Positions 3,680 to 35,248 are shown, numbered from the stretch's first letter. The stretch: 64,000 nucleotides of DNA from Collinsella sp. (GCA_018377855.1 JAGZYM010000005.1:15567-79566); one strand, 5' to 3'. Numbers and translations: made by a program. Notes: a model not told the origin generated them from the sequence alone.

Positions 3680-4585
3680 CTAGATGCTCAGCCAGCGATC
3701 GCCCTCAGCTCGGCAAAAGCCCTCACGCTCCAGGTCGGCTAGAATGCCCGCGATCAAGTCGTGCTCGACCGGCCCACGCCCAGCCGCCGCTTCCATCTCG
3801 TTAACGCCCGCCACGGCATCAGCAAGCGTAATCCCCGCCGGCTGGCCATCGCGCGCTGCCAGCAACATACGCACGATATGCGCGCGCTTTTGGCGACGCG
3901 AGCCCTCAAACTTTGATTGACGGCTATAGCCCGCCGAGCGCCTGGACGGATTGGGCAACGTCTTTTTTAGATATGCGCCGTAATCTAGCAACGCGTAATA
4001 CCACGCGCGCGGCGTGTCAGCATCGTCTTGAGGCGCGGCAAAGGGCGCAATCTCATCCGCCGCCGCACCAGAGGCCGCCGGACAGGCGGCTTGGATCAGC
4101 GGCACCAGCTCGCGATCGGGAACGGCCGGCACATCGGGAAAGAAATGATGCAAAAAGACCGTGCGCACGTTGGTCTCCAGATACACGCCCGGAAGATCAA
4201 ACGCAAACGACCGGATACCCTGCGCCGTTGCCGGGCCAATACCAGGCAGAGCGACCAAGTCACGCGTCTCACGCGGAAACTCCCCGCCCCAGTCCTCTAC
4301 AACGCGCTGAGCGGCCCCGTGAAGCGCCAGAGCGCGTCGGTTGTAGCCCATCCCCTGCCAAGCGTCCAAAACATCCGAAGGCGCGGCCTGGGCAAGCGCC
4401 TGCACGGTCGGAAAACGATTGAGCCACACCGGCATGCGCGCCTCCACACGCGGCACCTGTGTTTGCTGCAACATGACCTCAGAAAGCCAAATGATGTACG
4501 GATCGCGTGTACGGCGCCACGGAAGGTCGCGATAACGCAGGACCCCTTCCGAACGAATCATCGAACGAAAGGGGTCCTGAATCAT
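3680..4585 (-). CDS. HhH-GPD superfamily base-excision DNA glycosylase, MutY/Nth-like N-terminus, lacking the [4Fe-4S] Cys cluster
   Basis: N-terminus ...DPYIIWLSEVMLQQTQVPRV... and HhH motif LVALPGIGPATAQGI typical of MutY; only one Cys in the region where C-x6-C-x2-C-x5-C is expected; short non-NUDIX C-terminal domain. Confidence 0.75.
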   Translation of the reverse strand: MIQDPFRSMIRSEGVLRYRDLPWRRTRDPYIIWLSEVMLQQTQVPRVEARMPVWLNRFPTVQALAQAAPSDVLDAWQGMGYNRRALALHGAAQRVVEDWGGEFPRETRDLVALPGIGPATAQGIRSFAFDLPGVYLETNVRTVFLHHFFPDVPAVPDRELVPLIQAACPAASGAAADEIAPFAAPQDDADTPRAWYYALLDYGAYLKKTLPNPSRRSAGYSRQSKFEGSRRQKRAHIVRMLLAARDGQPAGITLADAVAGVNEMEAAAGRGPVEHDLIAGILADLEREGFCRAEGDRWLSI

Positions 4586-4606
4586 GGCTATGCTCCTTAT
4601 GCGGCG

Positions 4607-5092
4607 CTATTCCTCCCGGTAAGCGCACGCGCAGGTGGCGTACTCGGGAAACGCTTCGCGGTCGGCGAACTTGGGATCGACGGCCGGGAACTGGCGGTGA
4701 GCGACGATGTCGCCGAGCGAAACGGAATCGAGGTAGTCGCGCATCAACGCCTGAGCTCCGGCCCACAGGGGATGATAGCAGCACGCGCCCATGCGCGCAC
4801 AGTCACCATCGGGCGCGGTGCAATCGTTCATAACCATAGGACCCTGAACGGCCTCGACGACCTGGCGGATAGTGACGTCGTCCGGACTAACCTTGAGACG
4901 CATGCCACCGTGGACGCCACGCAGGCTCTCCACAATACCGGCCTGGACCAAACCGTGCTGAATCGAGCGGGCAAACGAATACGGGACATTGACCTCTTCG
5001 GCAGCGGTGCGAACAGAAAGCAAACGCTCCGGATCCTCGGCAAGCATCGCCAGCATACGAAGGGCGTAATCAGTCTTCCTCGATATGTCCAT
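4607..5092 (-). CDS. Rrf2-family transcriptional regulator (IscR/NsrR-like, Cys-containing)
   Basis: MDISRKTDYALRMLAMLA... classic Rrf2 wHTH; C-terminal cysteines CTAPDGDCARMGACC; start taken at the internal Met 5092 (ORF track 5200). Confidence 0.85.
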   Translation of the reverse strand: MDISRKTDYALRMLAMLAEDPERLLSVRTAAEEVNVPYSFARSIQHGLVQAGIVESLRGVHGGMRLKVSPDDVTIRQVVEAVQGPMVMNDCTAPDGDCARMGACCYHPLWAGAQALMRDYLDSVSLGDIVAHRQFPAVDPKFADREAFPEYATCACAYREE

Positions 5093-5420
5093 TTTTCCCC
5101 TTTCAAGGAATACGAACAGCTCGAACGAGTTCCGGGGCCGAGCTTGTGTCGAGACGCTAAATGACCGCCAGGACATCCAAATGGTAAATCGGATATCCAC
5201 TGAGTGCCGCGCTTGGAGCGAAATGCATCAGATGCGGCGCACAGTGCAATTTAGTATAACCTAACCCCTTGTCTCGTAGAACAGGTGTTGCGCAACAAAG
5301 CTGTTGTTCAGACAGATATACTTATTGGATTTTACTTGCGTTCCCGAAGGCGCGGGGATTCTGGGCGAAGATCCACCAGGGCGATCGTTCTATCGAAACA
5401 AAGTGCATCAAACGCAAAAA

Positions 5421-5440
5421 GCCACGTCCGAAGACGTGGC
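5421..5440. terminator. bidirectional intrinsic terminator hairpin (GCCACGTC-CGAA-GACGTGGC flanked by A5/T3)
   Basis: On the minus strand the hairpin is followed by a UUUUUGCGUUUG tract, directly 3' of tRNA-Asp. Confidence 0.6.
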
Positions 5441-5451
5441 TTTAATTGCGT

Positions 5452-5529
<78 letters not shown>

Positions 5530-23447: not shown

Positions 23448-23572
23448 GCAGGATCTGAGGGCTGACCTTCGCGGACACTCCGCAGGACGAAAGAACCCCC
23501 GCCGCACGTAGTGCGCAGCGGGGGTTCTTTCATGTCCGAGGACATCCGCGAAGGTCAGCCCTCAGATCCTGC
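23448..23572. repeat. nested palindrome: outer 25-bp inverted repeat (AGGATCTGAGGGCTGACCTTCGCGG...) around inner hairpin GAAAGAACCCCCGC...GCGGGGGTTCTTTC, immediately 3' of PFOR
   Basis: Read directly; probable transcription terminator or processing structure for nifJ. Confidence 0.5.
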
Positions 23573-23582
23573 GGTGGGAGAC

Positions 23583-27122
<3,540 letters not shown>

Positions 27123-27468
27123 ATACCCCTCTCCTCTCATATAGGTATACAGGCCCCGGCGATCGCCGGGATGTTGGCGTGATGGGATTTACGCTGTTGC
27201 TTCCAATCATCTGGCAGGCGGACTCAGCAGCAGGTACATGGCGTGGAGAGAAGGCATGCCGAGGCGAGGAGGGCTGCACGCGCTCCACAAGCCCAGCTAC
27301 CCGTCTTGCACATGACCGAGCGCCGCAAAGGCCGCATGCCGGATGCTCCCGGGCACGCCCCGGCGATGGGAAGCGCCCGCAACGGAAATCCGCATGCGGG
27401 TTTATTGTACCCCGCCGTTAAGTGTAATTTCGACAAATATAGGCGGGCGGTAAAGGTTTACCTCGGGT

Positions 27469-27995
27469 GACCGCCAAAGGCCAGAATGGTCCCTCCATCC
27501 CCGGACGACTGGCTCTGACGCGCCAAGGAGTGTCCCCAAGTACCGGCAGGAAAGGAACGTCCCTAACTGCCGGCTAGAGGGCGCCGAGCAGGATGGCGTA
27601 GGTGGTGGATTCGCCGAGTTTGAGCTCGTCGCCGGGGTTGAGCTGGGCGGAGCGGCCGGGCTCTACTTGAATACACACACTCGTGGCCCCGTTTACCACC
27701 ACGGTGCCGTTAGTGGACGACAGGTCCTCGACAAACCATGCGCCAGACTCGTCGCACCAGATATGGGCATGGCGGGCCGAGACGTCGTCGGTGATGCCGC
27801 CCTCCCCCGTTGCCAGCGCGCCGATCTCAACGCCTTCCTCACTCGGCTGAATCCAGCGCGGGACGCTCACCACGTAGCCGTTTTGCACGCACAGCAGTCC
27901 CAGCGGATGCGCCGGCGCGACCTCGTGCTCGCCCGCGACCGAAGATGTGCTCAGCGAGCGCGGCGTCGACGTGTCGCCGCCACGGGTCGCATGAG
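27469..27995. repeat. left copy of a roughly 530-bp direct repeat (about 85% identical to 34205-34748) covering the FHA-domain coding region and its 3' flank
   Basis: Nucleotide alignment by eye; includes the shared 45-nt motif. Confidence 0.75.
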
Positions 27996-28047
27996 CGCGG
28001 CGGCTCGCCCGACTTGGAACTAAGGCGGGCGTGAGAGCAAACGGCAT
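27574..28047 (-). CDS. FHA-domain protein, truncated paralogue (FHA domain only) of the 34310-35248 gene
   Basis: C-terminal 135 aa nearly identical to the paralogue (VSARHAHIWCD...VEDLSSTNGTVVNG); unique 18-aa N-terminus. Confidence 0.6.
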   Translation of the reverse strand: MPFALTPALVPSRASRRAHATRGGDTSTPRSLSTSSVAGEHEVAPAHPLGLLCVQNGYVVSVPRWIQPSEEGVEIGALATGEGGITDDVSARHAHIWCDESGAWFVEDLSSTNGTVVVNGATSVCIQVEPGRSAQLNPGDELKLGESTTYAILLGAL

Positions 28048-28533
28048 AGGGAACGAATCTTGCGGATGTACTCCTCGACGTCAGGCAGGTAAGCCCCACG
28101 AAGTCACCGGGGAGGCCCAAGCGGCCCGGCACCACTTCCAGATTCTGACCAGGGCGAGTCGTTCGCCGGTGGCTGAAGGCTCGCTCCCACCCAAAAGGGG
28201 AGATTCGCGTTGTTCCCCAATCGCTCTCGCATCTTTCATTTTGCTCGAGGTGGGCTATAAAAACTTTCCTGGTGAAAGGCGGCGATTGGTTTCCTTTCTT
28301 TCTAGAGGAGCGCGCCTGTAATCTGTTTTCATCCTAAATCAAGTTAAGATCGGACCTTCCAGAGGCAAGTCGACTCAAACTGCGAGGCTCCATGTTGGAA
28401 TAAAGAGCGCTGTCGAAGTGCCAACAACACAAAGCTTGCCAGTCTCAAATAGAACCTTTTGGGAGTCCGATTGGGCCGCACACCGAATCCCCGCTGGTGG
28501 TTTTTTATAGCTGCGCAACAATAAACAAGGTTA

Positions 28534-29922
28534 GTGCCAGTCCAGCATGAAATTGAGGAACGTATGCATTTTTTCTCAGTAAGTGATCGTCGTTACTGCT
28601 TCGATGAGGTCACTCGCAATTGCTTTCAGGTTGACCAAGCATCAGAAGATGCGCTTCGCATATTTGAAGCATCGGGAAGAACGGTCAACTCGAAGTTGCT
28701 AACAAAGTCACTTGCTGCGAAAGGCTACGACCAAACGACCATAGCAGAACTTGAAGACGACATTGATGAGTATCAACGATTGTCTGAGCGGACTTTCTTA
28801 ACAAAAGACACGCCTCGAAAACTTAGATCCATCGAACTCCACGTTTCACATGCATGCAACCTTGGTTGTAGTTACTGTTTTGCCGGTAAAGGAGATTATG
28901 GAACGTCTCCTCTGCTGATGACAGACGAGATAGCCTTCAAGGCGGTCGACTACCTCGTCGCAAGTTCATCGGAAAACGAAACGCTTGCGATCGTCTTTTT
29001 TGGTGGGGAACCCATGATTAACGAGCCGCTGATATGGAAAACGGTCGACTATTCAAAAAGAATATACCCCAATAGAAACTTTACCTATTCTATTACGACC
29101 AACGGAACGCTTTTGAATGACACTGCTGTGAATTCTTTCAAGGAGCACGGGTTTTCTGTTCTGATTAGTCTCGATGGTACAGGATGCAAGCACGATGCAT
29201 CGCGCCCGTACAAGACGGGAGGCGGCTCTTTCTCCGATATCGACAAAAACGTTCGTCGTTTTTCCGAGTCGTTCCCCTTCGGCGCAAGAGCGACCTTAAC
29301 AAATAATAACTGTAACCTTGTTGAAGACTATCTTCAGTTTAAAGAGATGGGCTTCAGAAGGATTTACTTCTCGCCCGTGAGCTCATTCGATGAGAATATC
29401 AAACTCGACGAACACTCATTAAACAAAATCAGGGCGGGCCTAATAGATTTGGCGGATCAATATCTCAAACAGATTGATCAAGGGGAAAAGCCCTTGTTTA
29501 GAACATTGAAAACTGCAGTTGATTTGATTATGAGTAACAGGATCGCCTTTGTCGGATGCGGGGCTGGCAGGCGTTTTATTTCCGTGACTCCCGAAGGGGA
29601 CGTATACCCCTGTCACAGGTTTGTCGGGATGATGCGATTCAAAATGGGCAACATCGTCACCGGAATTGACGAAACTAGGTATATTGAAAACTGGAGTCAG
29701 GGTGTCGAAAAAAGAATTGACTGTACGGACTGTTGGGCTCGGTCTTTCTGTGGTGGGGGCTGTAGCTGGGAGGCTGCAGACGAGCACGGCTACTTGCCCA
29801 AGAGTCTACACCCTGCATCATGTGAATATAGAAAAATGTGCTACGAGATGGCTTTTGACCTTATTTCCCGCCACTCATCTTCGCAGGAGAAAAATCAACG
29901 AGAAGCTACTGTATCGGAATAA
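28534..29922 (+). CDS. radical SAM/SPASM-domain peptide-modifying maturase with roughly 100-aa N-terminal RRE-like extension
   Basis: CNLGCSYC (CxxxCxxC) at residues 108-115; C-terminal SPASM cysteines CGAGRR...C...CTDCWARSFCGGGC...CEYRKMC; about 43% GC; alternative ATG at 28564. Confidence 0.85.
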   Translation: MPVQHEIEERMHFFSVSDRRYCFDEVTRNCFQVDQASEDALRIFEASGRTVNSKLLTKSLAAKGYDQTTIAELEDDIDEYQRLSERTFLTKDTPRKLRSIELHVSHACNLGCSYCFAGKGDYGTSPLLMTDEIAFKAVDYLVASSSENETLAIVFFGGEPMINEPLIWKTVDYSKRIYPNRNFTYSITTNGTLLNDTAVNSFKEHGFSVLISLDGTGCKHDASRPYKTGGGSFSDIDKNVRRFSESFPFGARATLTNNNCNLVEDYLQFKEMGFRRIYFSPVSSFDENIKLDEHSLNKIRAGLIDLADQYLKQIDQGEKPLFRTLKTAVDLIMSNRIAFVGCGAGRRFISVTPEGDVYPCHRFVGMMRFKMGNIVTGIDETRYIENWSQGVEKRIDCTDCWARSFCGGGCSWEAADEHGYLPKSLHPASCEYRKMCYEMAFDLISRHSSSQEKNQREATVSE

Positions 29923-30091
29923 GCGGTTCAGCGCATTGCTGTCACCATTGTGGAGGTGTTCGTTCTTCTGATTACCGTCTGCGAAGCTTATTGCTACATT
30001 CGCCGAAACCATTCTAGAAATATGGTGAACTAGACATCTTGGTTTGTTATACACAATATTGAGGTTTTTCTGCACTCAAAGGGAGGTAGTC

Positions 30092-30295
30092 GTGAAGCAT
30101 ATTCATCCGATTAATCCAGGAAGTGGCGACGAGGCAGGCGTGAAGCCGATGTCTTTTGACTGCCTCTTGGGCATTACTGACATCTGTACTGTTTATGATA
30201 AAGCAGATGGCTGTGGTGCATACGATTACTGCGACTATGACATGGATGGCGGCAGCATCTGCGTTGTAGATCACTGTGGCATTGATCAAACGTAG
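30092..30295 (+). CDS. RiPP precursor peptide 1 (67 aa; MKHIHP leader; core with 6 Cys and repeated C-x2-4-D spacing)
   Basis: GTG start 5 nt after AAGGGAGG; MKHIHPINPGSGDEAGVKPMSFDCLLGITDICTVYDKADGCGAYDYCDYDMDGGSICVVDHCGIDQT. Confidence 0.65.
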   Translation: MKHIHPINPGSGDEAGVKPMSFDCLLGITDICTVYDKADGCGAYDYCDYDMDGGSICVVDHCGIDQT

Positions 30296-30325
30296 TCTCT
30301 AATTGGATTAAGGTGAGGAGCTGTT

Positions 30326-30505
30326 ATGAAGCATATCCATCCTGTTGGTTCAAATGAACATCCTCCCGTTGAGCCTTGTTGTCTTGGAGTTGATATATGC
30401 AATTATTACGACATCGCCGAGTGCCCTGTTGCGGATTGGTGCTATGTCGATAAAGAATCAAGCTGTGTTTTGCCAGCAGATTGGTGCGATCCAGTTGACG
30501 AGTAG
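30326..30505 (+). CDS. RiPP precursor peptide 2 (59 aa; same leader family; 7 Cys), absent from the ORF track
   Basis: My own translation: ATG at 30326 after AGGTGAGGAG gives MKHIHPVGSNEHPPVEPCCLGVDICNYYDIAECPVADWCYVDKESSCVLPADWCDPVDE, stop TAG at 30503-30505. Confidence 0.65.
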   Translation: MKHIHPVGSNEHPPVEPCCLGVDICNYYDIAECPVADWCYVDKESSCVLPADWCDPVDE

Positions 30506-30583
30506 TTTTGTGGCTAGGAACTATTTGGTCCAATTCAGAATAAGATGGGAACAAATACCAAAATCTCGTGTCTGGGAGGAGTT

Positions 30584-30691
30584 ATGCCATTATTGCAAGG
30601 TCTCGTTGGATTAGCCTTTATACTTGCGTTATATCTGGCACCTTTTTTAATTCTATTCTTCATTATCCGACTCTTTCTTCGGAGAAAATAG
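30584..30691 (+). CDS. small hydrophobic peptide (35 aa, single TM, RRK C-terminus); candidate immunity or membrane partner
   Basis: ATG after GGGAGGAG; MPLLQGLVGLAFILALYLAPFLILFFIIRLFLRRK (my own translation, not in the ORF track). Confidence 0.3.
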   Translation: MPLLQGLVGLAFILALYLAPFLILFFIIRLFLRRK

Positions 30692-31391
30692 GAGTGTCAC
30701 GCAAACATTAGCGTAGCTTTCTTCCAATATGAGCCGAGCATTGGCAAGTGGAATAAGAAGCCCGACCGTTCGCCACATGAAAGTGATCGGACGGGCTTCT
30801 CTATTTAACCCGGGCCGCCACCCATAGCGGCTTTCCAAGCGTATTCTCAGTGCAAAGCAATCGTCAGTTTAATCCTATGCGCTGATACCGCATTTCATTT
30901 GTTCGGCTCGAATTCTACGGCCTGGCAACCCTCGCACTCTCCGGCAAATGGATTGAACGCGAAGGCAGAGATGATGTGTGCGTGGACATCGAGGCTGCTG
31001 TAGGCAACATACTGGGACATGGACCCCCGCTGCGCGTGGTATGCGGCCCGGCATATTCATTGCCGTCCAACCCCGTGTAGTTGCAGCAAAGGGTGGAACC
31101 TCAATGCTCAGCTCATGTTGTCCGTGGGACACGAGAATCGTAAGTACACTTTGGTGCGATTCTCACGCTGATACTGAGCCACCTGGAATAAGATACGTCG
31201 CGACAACACTTCGCTTCACCTCTGTCTCGACAAGATGACGTAGACTAAAGTTTCCTTTAGTAAGAGAACGAGAACTATATCTGAAAGCGTTGCGATGGCG
31301 TGAAGGCACCGAGTCCGAACCGCCTGAATGCTACGTGCATCTGCATCGCCTTTTTGTTATCTCTGCCAGTTGGGTAGCACTACACTTGTCA

Positions 31392-33044
31392 TCATTTACC
31401 CTGGTACATGCTGCCTAAATCCACTACCCCTTCTACCGCGCCGACCATCTCGTCATCGTGAGAGACAACGATGATCAGCTGGCTTTGCTTGTTGCGCTTA
31501 ACATAGGCCGCAAGCTCGGCGCGGCTTACAGCGTCTAACCCAGTCGTGGGCTCGTCGAGTACCAAAACTGACGACTTGCGTGAAATCGCCGACCATAAGT
31601 ACACTCGGCGCAGCTCACCGCCCGAAAGCGCGGAGCAACGTTTCCCGAGCAACTCCTTCACGCTGTTTTCCAACGAAAGTAGGCCATCTACACCCCGGTG
31701 ATAGGAAGAAAAGGGCGTGTCGAAATACTCTAACAGCTCTTTCACCGTTTCGTCCGGCGCGAAGCACGACTGTGGGCAGCACGATATCTCTCTCGCACGT
31801 ATGTAATCCAAGTCGCATTCTTCGATTGGCACGCCGTTGTATTTTACTTTGCCTTTCGATGAGTATAGCCCGAGCATCAAGTAAAGAAGTGACGTCTTGC
31901 CTCTTCCGTTTTCCCCAACTATGCAATATGTACCAGGACCGGAAAACTTGAAAGAAAACCCGCCGAGGACCTCTCGGACAGATCCGTCTGGAAGGGCAAC
32001 CGAGAATTCCAAATCAGATACCGAAATGTCATTTATTTCATCGAGTTTAGCTAAATCGGTCCGATTCCACCCCGATCTCTCCTTTTCTCTCGTCGCGATA
32101 GCCGTCCTATCCCATGATGCTTTGGCATCTTGATAGGATTTGAACAATGACATCATACTTTTCAAAGTCTTAAAGAGAACCGCGAAGTATGTACCGATGA
32201 TAGTGTACTCGCCTATTGACATAGTTCCGTTAATGATTCGTACTCCGGAAACAACAAGTATCACCGCTTGAAACAACGCTGCGAAAAGACCATCGAGCGA
32301 TGTCAGAGAATATGATAGCTTTCCGGAGCGCAAAACTTTGGGAAAATAGCTCTTAAACCCAGCGTCGAGCGCTTGTTCGCTCTTGCCGTACGAAGATGTC
32401 AGTTGAATGTTGAGAATCTGATTAAGCTGCGATGCAATTGCGGCGTAAAAGGCGCTGTCCGCCTCTTTCTTCTCATACGTGACCCTATACAAAAGATTCC
32501 TCAACCCAGTAATTACACAGAAATACACGATGAGGAGAATGATGGAAAACACCGCGAGAGTTGAATCAATTGACCATATGATAAGCAATACGATGGGAAT
32601 GGCTACAATGGACAGCGGCGCACTGATAAAATTCGCCAAAACGAAGGATGAGACCACGCTGGAGTCGGAAATAATCCGTTGCGTTGTATAGGCTGGATCG
32701 ATGGTCCGACTCACCAAGTAATCGTCTCTTTCAAAACGCAAGACGGCCTCCCTGAGAAGATCAAAGGAAAGTCTCGTGGTTATGCGAATGGAAAGTGTTC
32801 CTGCAAAATAAGTAAAGAGGGTGGAGAAAACTCCTATTGACGCAACCAGGAGCGCGAAGAGTACGGCGTCTCTTTCGCTGCGGTTACCGAGAAGAAAATC
32901 TAAGAATTTCCCGTTCACGTATGGCATGGCATAGGAGAGAGCGGTTCCAATCACCGTGATAGCAATGAAGACGAAAGCCCCTTTTGCTCTGATGAACCTC
33001 GAGAGAACGCATCGAATCAAGGAAGGCCCCAATCTACCCGCCAC
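31392..33044 (-). CDS. ABC exporter, fused TMD-NBD half-transporter without N-terminal peptidase domain
   Basis: Walker A GENGRGKTS, signature LSGGELRR, Walker B VLVLDEPTTGLD; about 6 TM helices; low GC. Confidence 0.8.
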   Translation of the reverse strand: MAGRLGPSLIRCVLSRFIRAKGAFVFIAITVIGTALSYAMPYVNGKFLDFLLGNRSERDAVLFALLVASIGVFSTLFTYFAGTLSIRITTRLSFDLLREAVLRFERDDYLVSRTIDPAYTTQRIISDSSVVSSFVLANFISAPLSIVAIPIVLLIIWSIDSTLAVFSIILLIVYFCVITGLRNLLYRVTYEKKEADSAFYAAIASQLNQILNIQLTSSYGKSEQALDAGFKSYFPKVLRSGKLSYSLTSLDGLFAALFQAVILVVSGVRIINGTMSIGEYTIIGTYFAVLFKTLKSMMSLFKSYQDAKASWDRTAIATREKERSGWNRTDLAKLDEINDISVSDLEFSVALPDGSVREVLGGFSFKFSGPGTYCIVGENGRGKTSLLYLMLGLYSSKGKVKYNGVPIEECDLDYIRAREISCCPQSCFAPDETVKELLEYFDTPFSSYHRGVDGLLSLENSVKELLGKRCSALSGGELRRVYLWSAISRKSSVLVLDEPTTGLDAVSRAELAAYVKRNKQSQLIIVVSHDDEMVGAVEGVVDLGSMYQGK

Positions 33045-33359
33045 AAAACATCAATCACTGATACCTTACACCTCAACACAACAGGAGCGAAGATTTGCCA
33101 ATGAGACTGCTTTAAGATTGCCTTGGGCCAATACGATCTCAAGCTCTTCCTACAAGAGAGTCGGAATCGGACATCTCCTCCGACGAACCTGGCAATCGGG
33201 CGGTTGAAATATCTTTTTCAACCGCCCGATTGCCACAATAGATTTGAGCATCCGCCCACAAACGTCCGCGTTTTATACCCATCAAATCCTTTGCCTTTTG
33301 TCGTCTAGACTAGAAAAATCGCTCGAAATAACGCAACCGGCCTGCTCGCTTGAAGAAAC

Positions 33360-33967
33360 CTAAGCCCGTAACGTAGATGTGCAAACTTCCGAAACGCCTT
33401 GCGCGGCATAGTGCGTATAAACTTCGTCAACCGCCTCAGAAATATCTGAGTATCGCGCCGGGTCAAAAGCATACGATGTCGCAGCTATACCCTGCACCCA
33501 TTCGGAACGCGGATTAATTGAATAGCCACACAGCATCATCATACATGCATCTAGACCTGATTTCCCAAGTATCCGACGTATTGATGAGAGCATCGCGGGT
33601 CGCCCCTGCACCATCGTCGTCACCCCTATTAGCAGTATTTACCGTTTTTCTCTAAATGCGTATCGCCACCCTTAAGAATACGAAGTGTTTTATCCAGACC
33701 CGATTGTCCTCCATCTCAAACGAAGGGATAAGGAATCTCATCCGGAATCGGCAGTAACGGAGGATTCACAACGACAAGCGAAAAACATGAGTCATCTCTC
33801 AGAGGGGAGTAAAGGCTCCCCTCAAGCACCCTAGTTTCGTCATCCAAAGAGTTGATGGCAGTGTTTTTCTTACAAAGGTCGACAACAAAAGGGTTGATTT
33901 CTACAGATGTTACATCCATGCCACAGTTGGTAAGTATCAGGCCCTGTATTCTGGGGCCAGAACACAA
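33360..33967 (-). pseudogene. remnants of a class I SAM-dependent methyltransferase split across two frames
   Basis: 33716-33967 fragment has motif I (LDLCSGPRIQG) and VVNPP; 33360-33623 fragment is in another frame; no intact ORF. Confidence 0.4.
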
Positions 33968-34204
33968 ATCGAGAGCCTTCCGTGCGCTCTGCGGTGTAAG
34001 GCGCCAATCTCAGCAAATCTGTCCCACAATACTGCGCTGAAGAACAAGACGGAACCCCTGAGCCAAACTCCCCTATACCTTATTAAGGCTAAGACAGGCA
34101 AGTTCACGCACCCGGCATATTCCAGAATAACATCCTATTGTTTTAGATGCTCTACAAGCATGAACAGCCGCGAATCGGAAAGATCTTCTAGTTTCGCCCC
34201 GACT

Positions 34205-34748
34205 GACCGCCAAGGGCCAAAATGGCCCCTCCATCCCCGGGCGACTGGCTCTGGCGCGCCGAGGAGTGTCCCCAAGTGCCGGCAGAAAAGGAACGTCCCT
34301 AACTGCCGGCTAGAGGGCACCGAAGAGAATGGCGTAGGTAGTGGATTCGCCGAGCTTGAGCTCGTCGCCGGGATTGAGTTGGGCGGAACGGCCGGGCTCG
34401 ACCTGAATGCAGACGCGCGTGGCCCCGTTTACCACCACGGTTCCGTTGGTGGACGACAAGTCCTCGACGTGCCAGATATTTTGAGCATCGCACCAGATAT
34501 GGGCATGGCGGGCCGAGACATCGTCGCCGACGTCGGTAATATCGCCCTCACCAGTGGCCAGCGCGCCAATCTCAACACCCTGCTCACTCGGCTGAATCCA
34601 GCGCGGGGCGCTCACGACAAAACTGTTTTGTACGCGCAGCAAGCCCAAGGGGTGCGCCGGGGCGGGTTCGCGTTCGCCCGCGGTCATCGACATGCCAAGC
34701 GAACGCGGCGTGGATGTGCCTCCGCCACAGGTCGCGTGCGCGTAGTCG
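34205..34748. repeat. right copy of the roughly 530-bp direct repeat (see 27469-27995)
   Basis: Nucleotide alignment by eye. Confidence 0.75.
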
Positions 34749-35248
34749 ATGGCATAGTTCACCGAGGACCGCACATCCGCCGAACAACCGACGGCGACAA
34801 ACAGCACCAGCACGGCCTCGGCGCGCTCGGCGGGCATGAGTTCCGCCGCCTGGGACAGGCGATCGAGCGCGTTGCGATAGAGATTCGTGTCCTGGTGGCA
34901 CTCTTCGAGCGCGCGTACCATCGGTTCACCTGCAGGACCGCACACCATATTGATCACAGCCGTGGAGTCCATGGGATTGCGCTGGCGCAGGGCCAGTTGC
35001 GACATAATACGCGCAGCCGAGGTACCGTATTCGGCAAAGTAGCGCTGCTGAAGCGTGCCGACCGGCGCGCGAACGATAAAGCGGGAAACCCAAGAGCGAT
35101 CGGCGGCTCGGCTCTGCGGGCTGCGGCCGTCGGCGAGCGGACGGGACGAAAGCACCAGGCCGCACAGCTCGATATGGCTCAGATGCGCCGCGCGCTTAAA
35201 GATGTCAAACATGGCCCCGCATGGGGTGAGCTCAACTTGAGATGCCAT
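34310..35248 (-). CDS. FHA-domain protein (full-length; N-terminal domain of unknown function plus C-terminal FHA)
   Basis: C-terminal FHA motifs; immediately downstream of a Ser/Thr kinase gene. Confidence 0.8.
   Translation of the reverse strand: MASQVELTPCGAMFDIFKRAAHLSHIELCGLVLSSRPLADGRSPQSRAADRSWVSRFIVRAPVGTLQQRYFAEYGTSAARIMSQLALRQRNPMDSTAVINMVCGPAGEPMVRALEECHQDTNLYRNALDRLSQAAELMPAERAEAVLVLFVAVGCSADVRSSVNYAIDYAHATCGGGTSTPRSLGMSMTAGEREPAPAHPLGLLRVQNSFVVSAPRWIQPSEQGVEIGALATGEGDITDVGDDVSARHAHIWCDAQNIWHVEDLSSTNGTVVVNGATRVCIQVEPGRSAQLNPGDELKLGESTTYAILFGAL

Follow-up and report, generated by a model that had tools for sequence, protein, structure and literature searches.

What are the two short open reading frames (ORFs) that lie side by side behind a radical S-adenosylmethionine (rSAM) gene in a genome of Collinsella? 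The question is raised by a stretch of 64,000 nucleotides from Collinsella sp. (GCA_018377855.1, JAGZYM010000005.1:15567-79566), hereafter the window, in which positions 30092 to 30505 encode two small Cys-rich peptides. A preliminary description of the stretch had taken them for tandem precursor peptides with freyrasin-like Cys…Asp repeats. The present analysis confirms that both ORFs are real, conserved precursor-peptide genes. With moderate confidence, we further consider them the substrates of the adjacent enzyme, which together with a small membrane protein and an exporter would form a compact cassette of the ranthipeptide type, one class among the ribosomally synthesized peptides with post-translational modifications (RiPPs).

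Two conserved precursor-peptide genes

The enzyme and the two peptides, named A and B, are laid out as follows.

28534-29922, plus strand: RRE/radical-SAM/SPASM peptide maturase of 462 amino acids (Pfam Radical_SAM, Fer4_12, SPASM)
30079-30086, plus strand: ribosome-binding site (RBS) of peptide A, AAGGGAGG, as read from the sequence, 5 nucleotides before GTG 30092
30092-30295, plus strand: precursor peptide A, 67 amino acids, MKHIHPINPGSGDEAGVKPMSFDCLLGITDICTVYDKADGCGAYDYCDYDMDGGSICVVDHCGIDQT, GTG start, stop TAG at 30293-30295
30311-30320, plus strand: RBS of peptide B, AGGTGAGGAG, as read from the sequence, 5 nucleotides before ATG 30326
30326-30505, plus strand: precursor peptide B, 59 amino acids, MKHIHPVGSNEHPPVEPCCLGVDICNYYDIAECPVADWCYVDKESSCVLPADWCDPVDE, ATG start, stop TAG at 30503-30505

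On re-reading of the sequence, the coordinates, start codons, RBSs, Cys counts and motifs given for both ORFs in the preliminary description all proved correct, as did their common MKHIHP(I/V) start. The Cys residues of peptide A are at positions 24, 32, 41, 47, 57 and 62, i.e. six Cys in 39 residues, and their spacings to the conserved Asp columns are x5, x3, x3, x2, x2 and x2. Peptide B has seven Cys (18, 19, 25, 33, 39, 47 and 54), six of them conserved, with spacings of x3, x3, x3, x2, x4 and x3. The statement that an Asp follows shortly after nearly every Cys also holds, the spacings ranging from x2 to x5. Both peptides are extremely acidic, with a net charge of about -9 to -10. A mechanical ORF list places the start of peptide A at an upstream TTG (30044); GTG 30092 is the right start, because homologues begin with ATG-AAG-CAT (MKH) at the position of the GTG. 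All copies of the Collinsella aerofaciens group start with GTG, and the relatives L081 and L083 described below with ATG; beside a strong RBS, the GTG might tune the A:B expression ratio. No Pfam or NCBIfam family is reached at threshold by peptide A or B. SCIFF, freyrasin, CefA and the other precursor families of these two collections were thereby rejected, and a match to SapA (E 0.006, below cut-off) was dismissed as an artefact of the Cys pattern. No third copy was found in the six-frame translation of the window with a family profile, a search that is circular for the two members themselves.

Do the two ORFs behave as genes? The genome sample consists of the best 80 of 402 rSAM matches among GTDB species representatives (L001-L080); all are 100% identical in the rSAM protein and nearly all are labelled Collinsella or Coriobacteriaceae. 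As a selection of the best matches, the sample is biased. The metagenome sample consists of 80 human-gut contigs retrieved with a B-type alignment, which are all near-identical and therefore inform on prevalence, not on diversity. Divergent contexts (L081, L083, L087, L088, L090 and L091) were obtained from single-protein look-ups of progressively remoter homologues. All 80 genome loci have the two peptides intact, and 78 of the 80 metagenome contigs carry the pair, the exceptions being mostly cuts at contig ends. The rSAM gene, peptide A, peptide B and the small membrane ORF, with an exporter nearby, are found again in L081 (rSAM identity 73%) and in L083 (67%), whose host is probably Collinsella intestinalis (via P0126). 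In L087 (44%), L090 (43%) and L088 (40%), two family peptides flank the rSAM gene, upstream or divergently. In related islands, down to 40% rSAM identity, small ORFs of this family thus keep their place next to the rSAM gene, a result that supports the interpretation in the preliminary description. Between the window, L081 and L083, silent sites are saturated (proportion of silent differences, pS, 0.83-0.98). Replacement differences (pN) are few, at 0.11-0.23 for the peptide A core and 0.17-0.24 for peptide B. The ratio pN/pS is 0.12-0.23 for the peptide A core and 0.18-0.30 for peptide B. Replacement changes are strongly suppressed, that is, both ORFs are under purifying selection. Since the pair recurs by homologous rSAM genes in unrelated contexts and replacement changes are suppressed, the ORFs are more than chance.

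What is conserved in the peptides? A word-indexed search gave 24 relatives, all unnamed. An exhaustive search of 1.84 billion representative proteins with a hidden Markov model (HMM) gave 40 family members at E<=1e-3 (about 40 sequence clusters), and none of these is named either. An alignment of 34 sequences reads MKHIxLxN, about 12 variable residues, and then AC-x2-3-D-x-C-x3-D-x2-3-C-x3-D-x-C-x2-D-x3-4-C-x2-3-D-x-C-x1-2-D. In the numbering of peptide A, C24, C32, D45, C47, D50 and D60 are invariant; D30, C41, C62 and D65 are conserved in at least 90% of the sequences, and D36 in at least 70%. Conservation in the core is limited to six Cys and six Asp, each Cys with its own downstream Asp, and no Thr or Ser column is conserved there. 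Where the presumed acceptor varies, Asp gives way to Glu (L088 and L090, first acceptor of the B-type peptide) or to Asn (D36); judged from the sequences, such replacements would be chemically like-for-like for a side-chain acceptor. The seventh Cys of peptide B, C18, is not conserved, being Tyr in relatives: the window reads Cys-Cys at 30377-30382 (C18-C19), where the B-type peptides from L081 and L083, and those of some Collinsella variants (P0123), have Tyr-Cys. This Cys is lineage-specific, and a six-ring model would leave it unpaired or could let it compete for the first Asp. Peptide B of the window also has NYYD versus NFYD in most Collinsella copies.

Why are there two peptides? A tree built from 14 peptides splits into A and B clades, and each of the two has one member from the window, L081, L083, L088 and L090. 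A-type peptides end in CG(I/T)Dxx and B-type peptides in D(W/Y)CDPxD(E/D). One peptide of each type is thus found at 73, 67, 43 and 40% rSAM identity, while L087 (44%) has two B-side paralogues instead. Orthologues are 65-72% identical, and A and B of one locus about 36%; the duplication is therefore older than the split of enzymes that are now just 40% identical. That both old copies were kept is what joint action of the products would lead one to expect. As old paralogues retained as a pair, A-type and B-type peptides probably work jointly, for example as a two-peptide bacteriocin or signal. Thuricin CD, a two-component sactibiotic, is a precedent for two-peptide rSAM thioether RiPPs (PMC8326336).

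The maturase, the exporter and the proposed chemistry

In the enzyme, a CX3CX2C motif is found at C108/C112/C115 and seven SPASM Cys at C342, C360, C397, C400, C406, C410 and C430; all of them are invariant in 42 homologues. Against NCBIfam models it scores (bits, cut-off in brackets) 272 (340) for PapB, 266 (425) for the SCIFF maturase, 260 (519) for the nif11 maturase and 241 (453) for QhpD, so that no cut-off is reached, and sactisynthase models score far lower (RumMC 120 bits, StsB 64 bits). The relative P0022, 40% identical, gives 270 bits with the PapB model, again below the NF047865 cut-off (340). The enzyme is 32% identical to PapB of Paenibacillus polymyxa over the full length (E 1e-66), and among solved chains the SCIFF maturase CteB is the nearest in sequence (E 2.7e-64). 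An AlphaFold model (pLDDT 92.8) has CteB (5why/5wgg) as its top Foldseek match, with a TM-score of 0.81-0.89 over 444-460 columns, and the superposition includes the N-terminal domain of three strands and three helices, the RRE leader-binding fold. In a rough neighbour-joining tree, the enzymes that accompany the peptide family form a group of their own, apart from the SCIFF maturases and PapB; it holds the window clade and P0024-P0026, of which P0026 adjoins the family peptide P0151 in L091. The maturase fits the PapB/CteB/QhpD group of rSAM/SPASM enzymes with an RRE domain. Its nearest characterised relatives (PapB, CteB/SCIFF and QhpD) make Cys thioethers to side-chain carbons (PMC8326336).

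The freyrasin precursor PapA carries six links from Cys-S to Asp-C-beta, and PapB accepts Glu as well as Cys-Xn-Asp with n = 0-6 (PMC9413430; PMC12373016). The earlier freyrasin-like reading of the Cys…Asp repeats is strengthened by the Cys/Asp-only conservation of the core and by the fact that PapB is the best NCBIfam match of the enzyme. The following mechanism may be proposed. The shared leader (MKHIHP…), which comprises about 20 residues and has its end close to a conserved Pro, would be bound by the N-terminal RRE domain of the enzyme. A 5'-deoxyadenosyl radical would take a hydrogen from the beta-carbon of an Asp, and a Cys thiolate on an auxiliary [4Fe-4S] cluster would capture the resulting radical. 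By repetition each peptide could acquire as many as six thioether rings between Cys-S and Asp-C-beta, and if pairing runs from C1-D1 to C6-D6, these would be in-line rings of 2-5 residues arranged in three C-x-D-x-C-x-D modules. The strongly acidic products would leave via the ABC transporter, and the leader, if removed at all, would be removed by a host enzyme, since no protease is encoded. The product might serve as a bacteriocin, a signal or a metal binder.

Two further genes complete the five-gene cassette, whose size is about 4.5 kb.

30584-30691, plus strand: single-helix membrane protein of 35 amino acids, MPLLQGLVGLAFILALYLAPFLILFFIIRLFLRRK, ATG at 30584, an upstream in-frame ATG at 30545 being possible
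31392-33044, minus strand: ABC exporter of 550 amino acids, with transmembrane domain and ATPase (Pfam ABC_membrane, ABC_tran)

An ORF of the same position and topology as the membrane protein follows peptide B in L081 (7459-7581) and L083 (6988-7107). Its pN/pS is 0.32-0.57, it is on 75 of the 80 metagenome contigs, and it matches no Pfam or NCBIfam family; it is a candidate immunity or export accessory factor. A peptidase domain is absent from the exporter: where NCBIfam models of peptidase-containing bacteriocin exporters align to it, the alignment starts at about profile position 150, past the peptidase domain. In L081 and L083, too, the cassette comes with a homologous exporter. More distant relatives have other neighbours, namely an ABC ATPase, a membrane protein of about 500 amino acids (or split; permease, ABC-2-type pair) without a Pfam match, and an Rce1/CPBP-like protease (L087 2484-6491, L088 5355-9362, L090 3160-7158, L091 2209-5347). 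A second ABC exporter follows in L087, L088 and L090, and the contig of L091 stops before that point. ABC-2-type ATPase/permease genes and Rce1/CPBP-like proteases are typical self-protection (immunity) genes of bacteriocin producers, and thus in the distant relatives they point to an exported bioactive product. As side observations, the end of a response-regulator-like gene lies ahead of the L091 cassette, and in L086 a second rSAM/SPASM gene lies downstream (4357-5527).

Several observations weigh against this picture of a two-peptide, freyrasin-like cassette. With the freyrasin precursor model NF037957 (cut-off 30 bits), the window peptides have no match at E<=1, while the PapA control scores 65 bits; among the 34 aligned family members, just one matches (E 0.15). 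Freyrasin precursors were retrieved with a synthetic bait composed of the published PapA leader and repeated CSANDA (e.g. MLKQINVIAGVKEPIRAYGCSANDACYFCDTKDNCKACDASDFCIKSDT, with six Cys, six Asp and CX3D motifs, some of them nested), and the hhalign alignment of the family to them is weak (probability 54.6%, E 1.2e-4), covering 31 columns, the leader and the first two Cys only. The D-x-C spacing is as well conserved as the Cys-x-Asp spacing, so other Cys/Asp pairings are allowed. The enzyme is equidistant (about 32%) from PapB and the SCIFF maturases and lies in its own clade, so acceptor specificity is not readable from homology. The distant member L091 has a single peptide (P0151), so that pairing does not hold throughout the wider family. 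The charge given above is unusual for a membrane-active bacteriocin and calls for caution about a classical pore-former. A tblastn search of the island with the ABC-2 ATPase, permease and CPBP proteins of the distant relatives hit only the ATPase domain of the exporter, with no remnants of immunity genes. Finally, no leader protease is encoded in the island either, and the exporter lacks a peptidase.

Which other explanations should be considered? One is that the peptides are SCIFFs in the narrow sense, with one or few links from Cys to Thr (C-gamma) or the like, Asp being no acceptor, and with the housekeeping or quorum-sensing role proposed for clostridial SCIFFs. The leader starts with MKHI(K/H) as in genuine SCIFF, the SCIFF maturase model gives the enzyme 266 bits, and its closest solved structure is CteB. 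The SCIFF hallmark noted in the preliminary description stands as far as peptide A does have six Cys in fewer than 45 residues. It does not extend to membership of the family, because the SCIFF models TIGR03973 and PF13165 give no match to either window peptide at E<=1 (a real SCIFF control scores 85 bits) and hhalign aligns the leader only (probability 26%); the freyrasin model gave the same outcome, no match for the window peptides and a good score for a real member. Moreover, the enzyme stays below the cut-off and outside the SCIFF maturase clade, the core has no conserved Thr or Ser column, and a low-GC island with an exporter is unlike the clostridial context seen in L175. We therefore regard a narrow-sense SCIFF as quite unlikely. 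A two-component sactipeptide, in which thioethers go to alpha-carbons as in thuricin CD and the Asp are structural or charge determinants, or acceptors through their alpha-carbon, is improbable to a similar degree. Two different Cys-rich precursors by an rSAM/SPASM enzyme and an ABC exporter would suit it, with thuricin CD as the precedent (PMC8326336). The scores of the sactisynthase models speak against it (120 and 64 bits against 241-272 bits for the PapB, SCIFF and QhpD models), and there is a single rSAM gene here, against two in thuricin CD. In known sactipeptides the donor Cys are in the N-terminal half and the acceptors in the C-terminal half, forming a hairpin, whereas Cys and Asp alternate regularly in the present peptides.

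It is also conceivable, though unlikely, that the enzyme carries out some other rSAM reaction (a C-C cross-link, epimerisation or another), or that the peptides are mainly unmodified or disulfide-bonded acidic metal binders, whose Cys and Asp serve for coordination. SPASM enzymes catalyse many chemistries, this one falls in no curated equivalog, and an acidic, Cys-rich composition could chelate cations. Against this stand the Cys thioethers to side-chain carbons made by all the nearest characterised relatives, and the one-to-one relation of six Cys to six downstream carboxylates, which mirrors the six CX3D motifs of freyrasin. Hardly credible is the explanation that the ORFs are chance or decayed frames, unexpressed in a degenerate island. 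Gene remnants at 33360-34107, the lack of a regulator in the island and promoter and terminator scans at background level could be brought forward for it, but it is opposed by the strong RBSs, the purifying selection, and the conservation in five independent contexts and 160 loci. An RNA explanation was rejected, no tRNA or Rfam family being in or near the region. Thus the cassette with two peptides as thioether substrates of one maturase is the reading that we keep.

A bolder version of it can be formulated. Peptides A and B would be the first two-component ranthipeptide: two different six-ring Cys-Asp thioether peptides, made by one maturase, that act only together, with the 35-residue protein as immunity factor and with the island spreading among Collinsella. 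The product would be a narrow-spectrum bacteriocin or signal among human-gut Coriobacteriia. We hold this version to be possible but doubtful. No report of a two-component ranthipeptide was found in the literature, where search coverage was incomplete and absence of a report is absence of evidence only.

The low-GC island

The host chromosome is that of Collinsella (Coriobacteriia), and the cassette occupies a low-GC island in it.

28050-34190: low-GC island with the cassette, GC 43-53% inside versus 60-67% outside
27454-27997: left copy of an imperfect direct repeat of about 550 bp (repeat families D1-D3, 78-90% identity), with a partial FHA-domain gene at 27574-28047, minus strand, 157 amino acids
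34190-34742: right copy of the direct repeat, with the 3' part of a full FHA-domain gene at 34310-35248, minus strand, 312 amino acids

On the plus strand of the island the order is the rSAM gene (462 amino acids), a gap of 169 nucleotides, the ORFs of 67 and 59 amino acids and the hydrophobic ORF of 35 amino acids. Is the cassette mobile? The cassettes of L081 and L083 are likewise low in GC (46-50%, with flanks of 62-68%) and occupy other chromosomal sites. Three close cassettes in three neighbourhoods, all low-GC in high-GC genomes, argue that the cassette moves as a unit. The direct repeat bounding the island is the duplicated 3' part of the FHA gene plus about 120 bp past the gene, and it resembles a scar left by an element which entered at the 3' end of this gene and carried its own replacement end. 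The island has no integrase, and it has no megablast match in plasmid and phage collections. Compared over 26000-35248 with L001-L080, the island DNA is at the median 99.5-99.9% identical to the window, while the adjoining, highly conserved PFOR gene is just 98.1% identical. The higher identity of the island hints at recent spread or at recombination between lineages. The most variable part of the island is 29923-30700, which holds the peptide genes (median 99.49%).

Some further features of the region may be recorded. At 33360-34107 on the minus strand are short ORFs of 87, 83 and 56 amino acids, the middle one of which (33716-33967) has matches to methyltransferases of the MTS/HemK type (Pfam E 8e-5; NCBIfam E 2e-9); they are apparently a broken methyltransferase gene, and it has no counterpart in the close cassettes L081 and L083. 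The 690 bp or so between the small membrane ORF and the exporter (30701-31391) have a slightly raised GC content of about 52% and no ORF with a family match. Promoter and terminator scans over the island gave background levels; a weak promoter-like site at 30031-30060 and a weak terminator-like hairpin at 30877-30893 on the plus strand were not used as evidence. Outside the island, an open frame of 1223 amino acids (23511-27182, plus strand) is antisense to the PFOR gene (23583-27140, minus strand, 1185 amino acids, resembling pyruvate:ferredoxin oxidoreductase in sequence). It is a typical shadow ORF of high-GC DNA and no gene, like the many long overlapping ORF pairs in the window.

What does the locus mean for the class? 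Among RiPPs, ranthipeptides form a young class: few members have been characterised, and hardly any biological function is established. The class and the proposed chemistry are already known. What is new here is an unannotated precursor family with a clean signature of six Cys and six Asp, a predicted ring layout unlike that of freyrasin, a conserved heterotypic pair of peptides with one enzyme, and a new, very prevalent host. Collinsella is a very common genus of the human gut, and the cassette is near-identical in at least 80 species-level genomes and on 80 gut metagenome contigs. Given this prevalence, a competitive or signalling activity, if there is any, could be of consequence for the ecology of the gut. 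With its small size, the cassette lends itself directly to tests by heterologous expression, and its enzyme, naturally two-substrate, could extend the PapB-type toolbox for enzymatic macrocyclisation of peptides.

Comparison with known systems

Judged by its genes, the locus would be placed among the ranthipeptides at the class level, as it combines an rSAM/SPASM maturase that has an RRE domain with a co-conserved, adjoining precursor. Full-text searches of the literature, whether for the peptide strings or for Collinsella along with ranthipeptide, radical SAM or RiPP, turned up no account of it. In the portions of the survey papers that were available, 'ranthipeptide' clusters are just listed from automated mining and none is assigned to Collinsella. 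Then which known system is it closest to? The freyrasin system (PapA/PapB, Paenibacillus polymyxa; NF037957/NF047865) has a similar leader of about 19-20 residues, a core with six Cys each followed by Asp, and a single RRE-rSAM-SPASM maturase. Its locus contains ABC-2-type transporter genes, PapA, PapB and a peptidase-less ABC exporter, which has the same position relative to the maturase as here. Precursor(s), maturase and exporter are thus kept in the Collinsella cassette, and the membrane protein of 35 amino acids is added. The differences lie in the core and in the setting. PapA has uniform, partly nested CX3D motifs (CYFCDTKD), whereas the Collinsella motifs are in line (C-x2-5-D-x-C-x2-3-D), in cores that have more residues (about 40-45, against 30) and a far more acidic composition. 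There are two divergent, paired precursors versus one PapA, and the host is a gut actinobacterium that carries them in a low-GC island.

With SCIFF (TIGR03973/TIGR03974; CteA/CteB, Tte1186a), the locus shares the leader start MKHI(K/H), genuine SCIFF beginning MKHIKTL…, the six Cys in fewer than 45 residues, and the fold and domain order of the maturase, as CteB is the top structural match. The Collinsella core is unrelated to it and lacks the GGCGECQTSCQSACKTSC motif, with conserved Asp where SCIFF has a Thr acceptor, and an island with an exporter takes the place of the conserved clostridial housekeeping neighbourhood. The common leader start suggests a shared ancestry of leader/RRE recognition, from which the cores have diverged. 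Thuricin CD (Trn-alpha/Trn-beta) is similar in that rSAM maturation and ABC export go with two different thioether precursors encoded as neighbours (PMC8326336). It differs in its alpha-carbon thioethers and hairpin topology, in contrast to one PapB/SCIFF/QhpD-type enzyme and alternating Cys and Asp in Collinsella. Two dedicated rSAM enzymes belong to the thuricin CD locus; the Collinsella island has one rSAM gene only, so there is not one maturase per precursor. In the QhpC/QhpD system of quinohemoprotein amine dehydrogenase, an rSAM/SPASM enzyme likewise makes thioethers from Cys to the side chains of Asp or Glu (PMC8326336). The Collinsella substrates differ from it in being small, leader-bearing peptides by an exporter, and no genes for qhp dehydrogenase subunits are among the ORFs of the island or its flanks. 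Taken together, the locus most likely represents a new branch of Cys-Asp ranthipeptides, distinct from both SCIFF and the NCBIfam freyrasin family, in which the Cys-to-Asp linkage is predicted from the conserved pattern of the peptides and the kinship of the enzyme.

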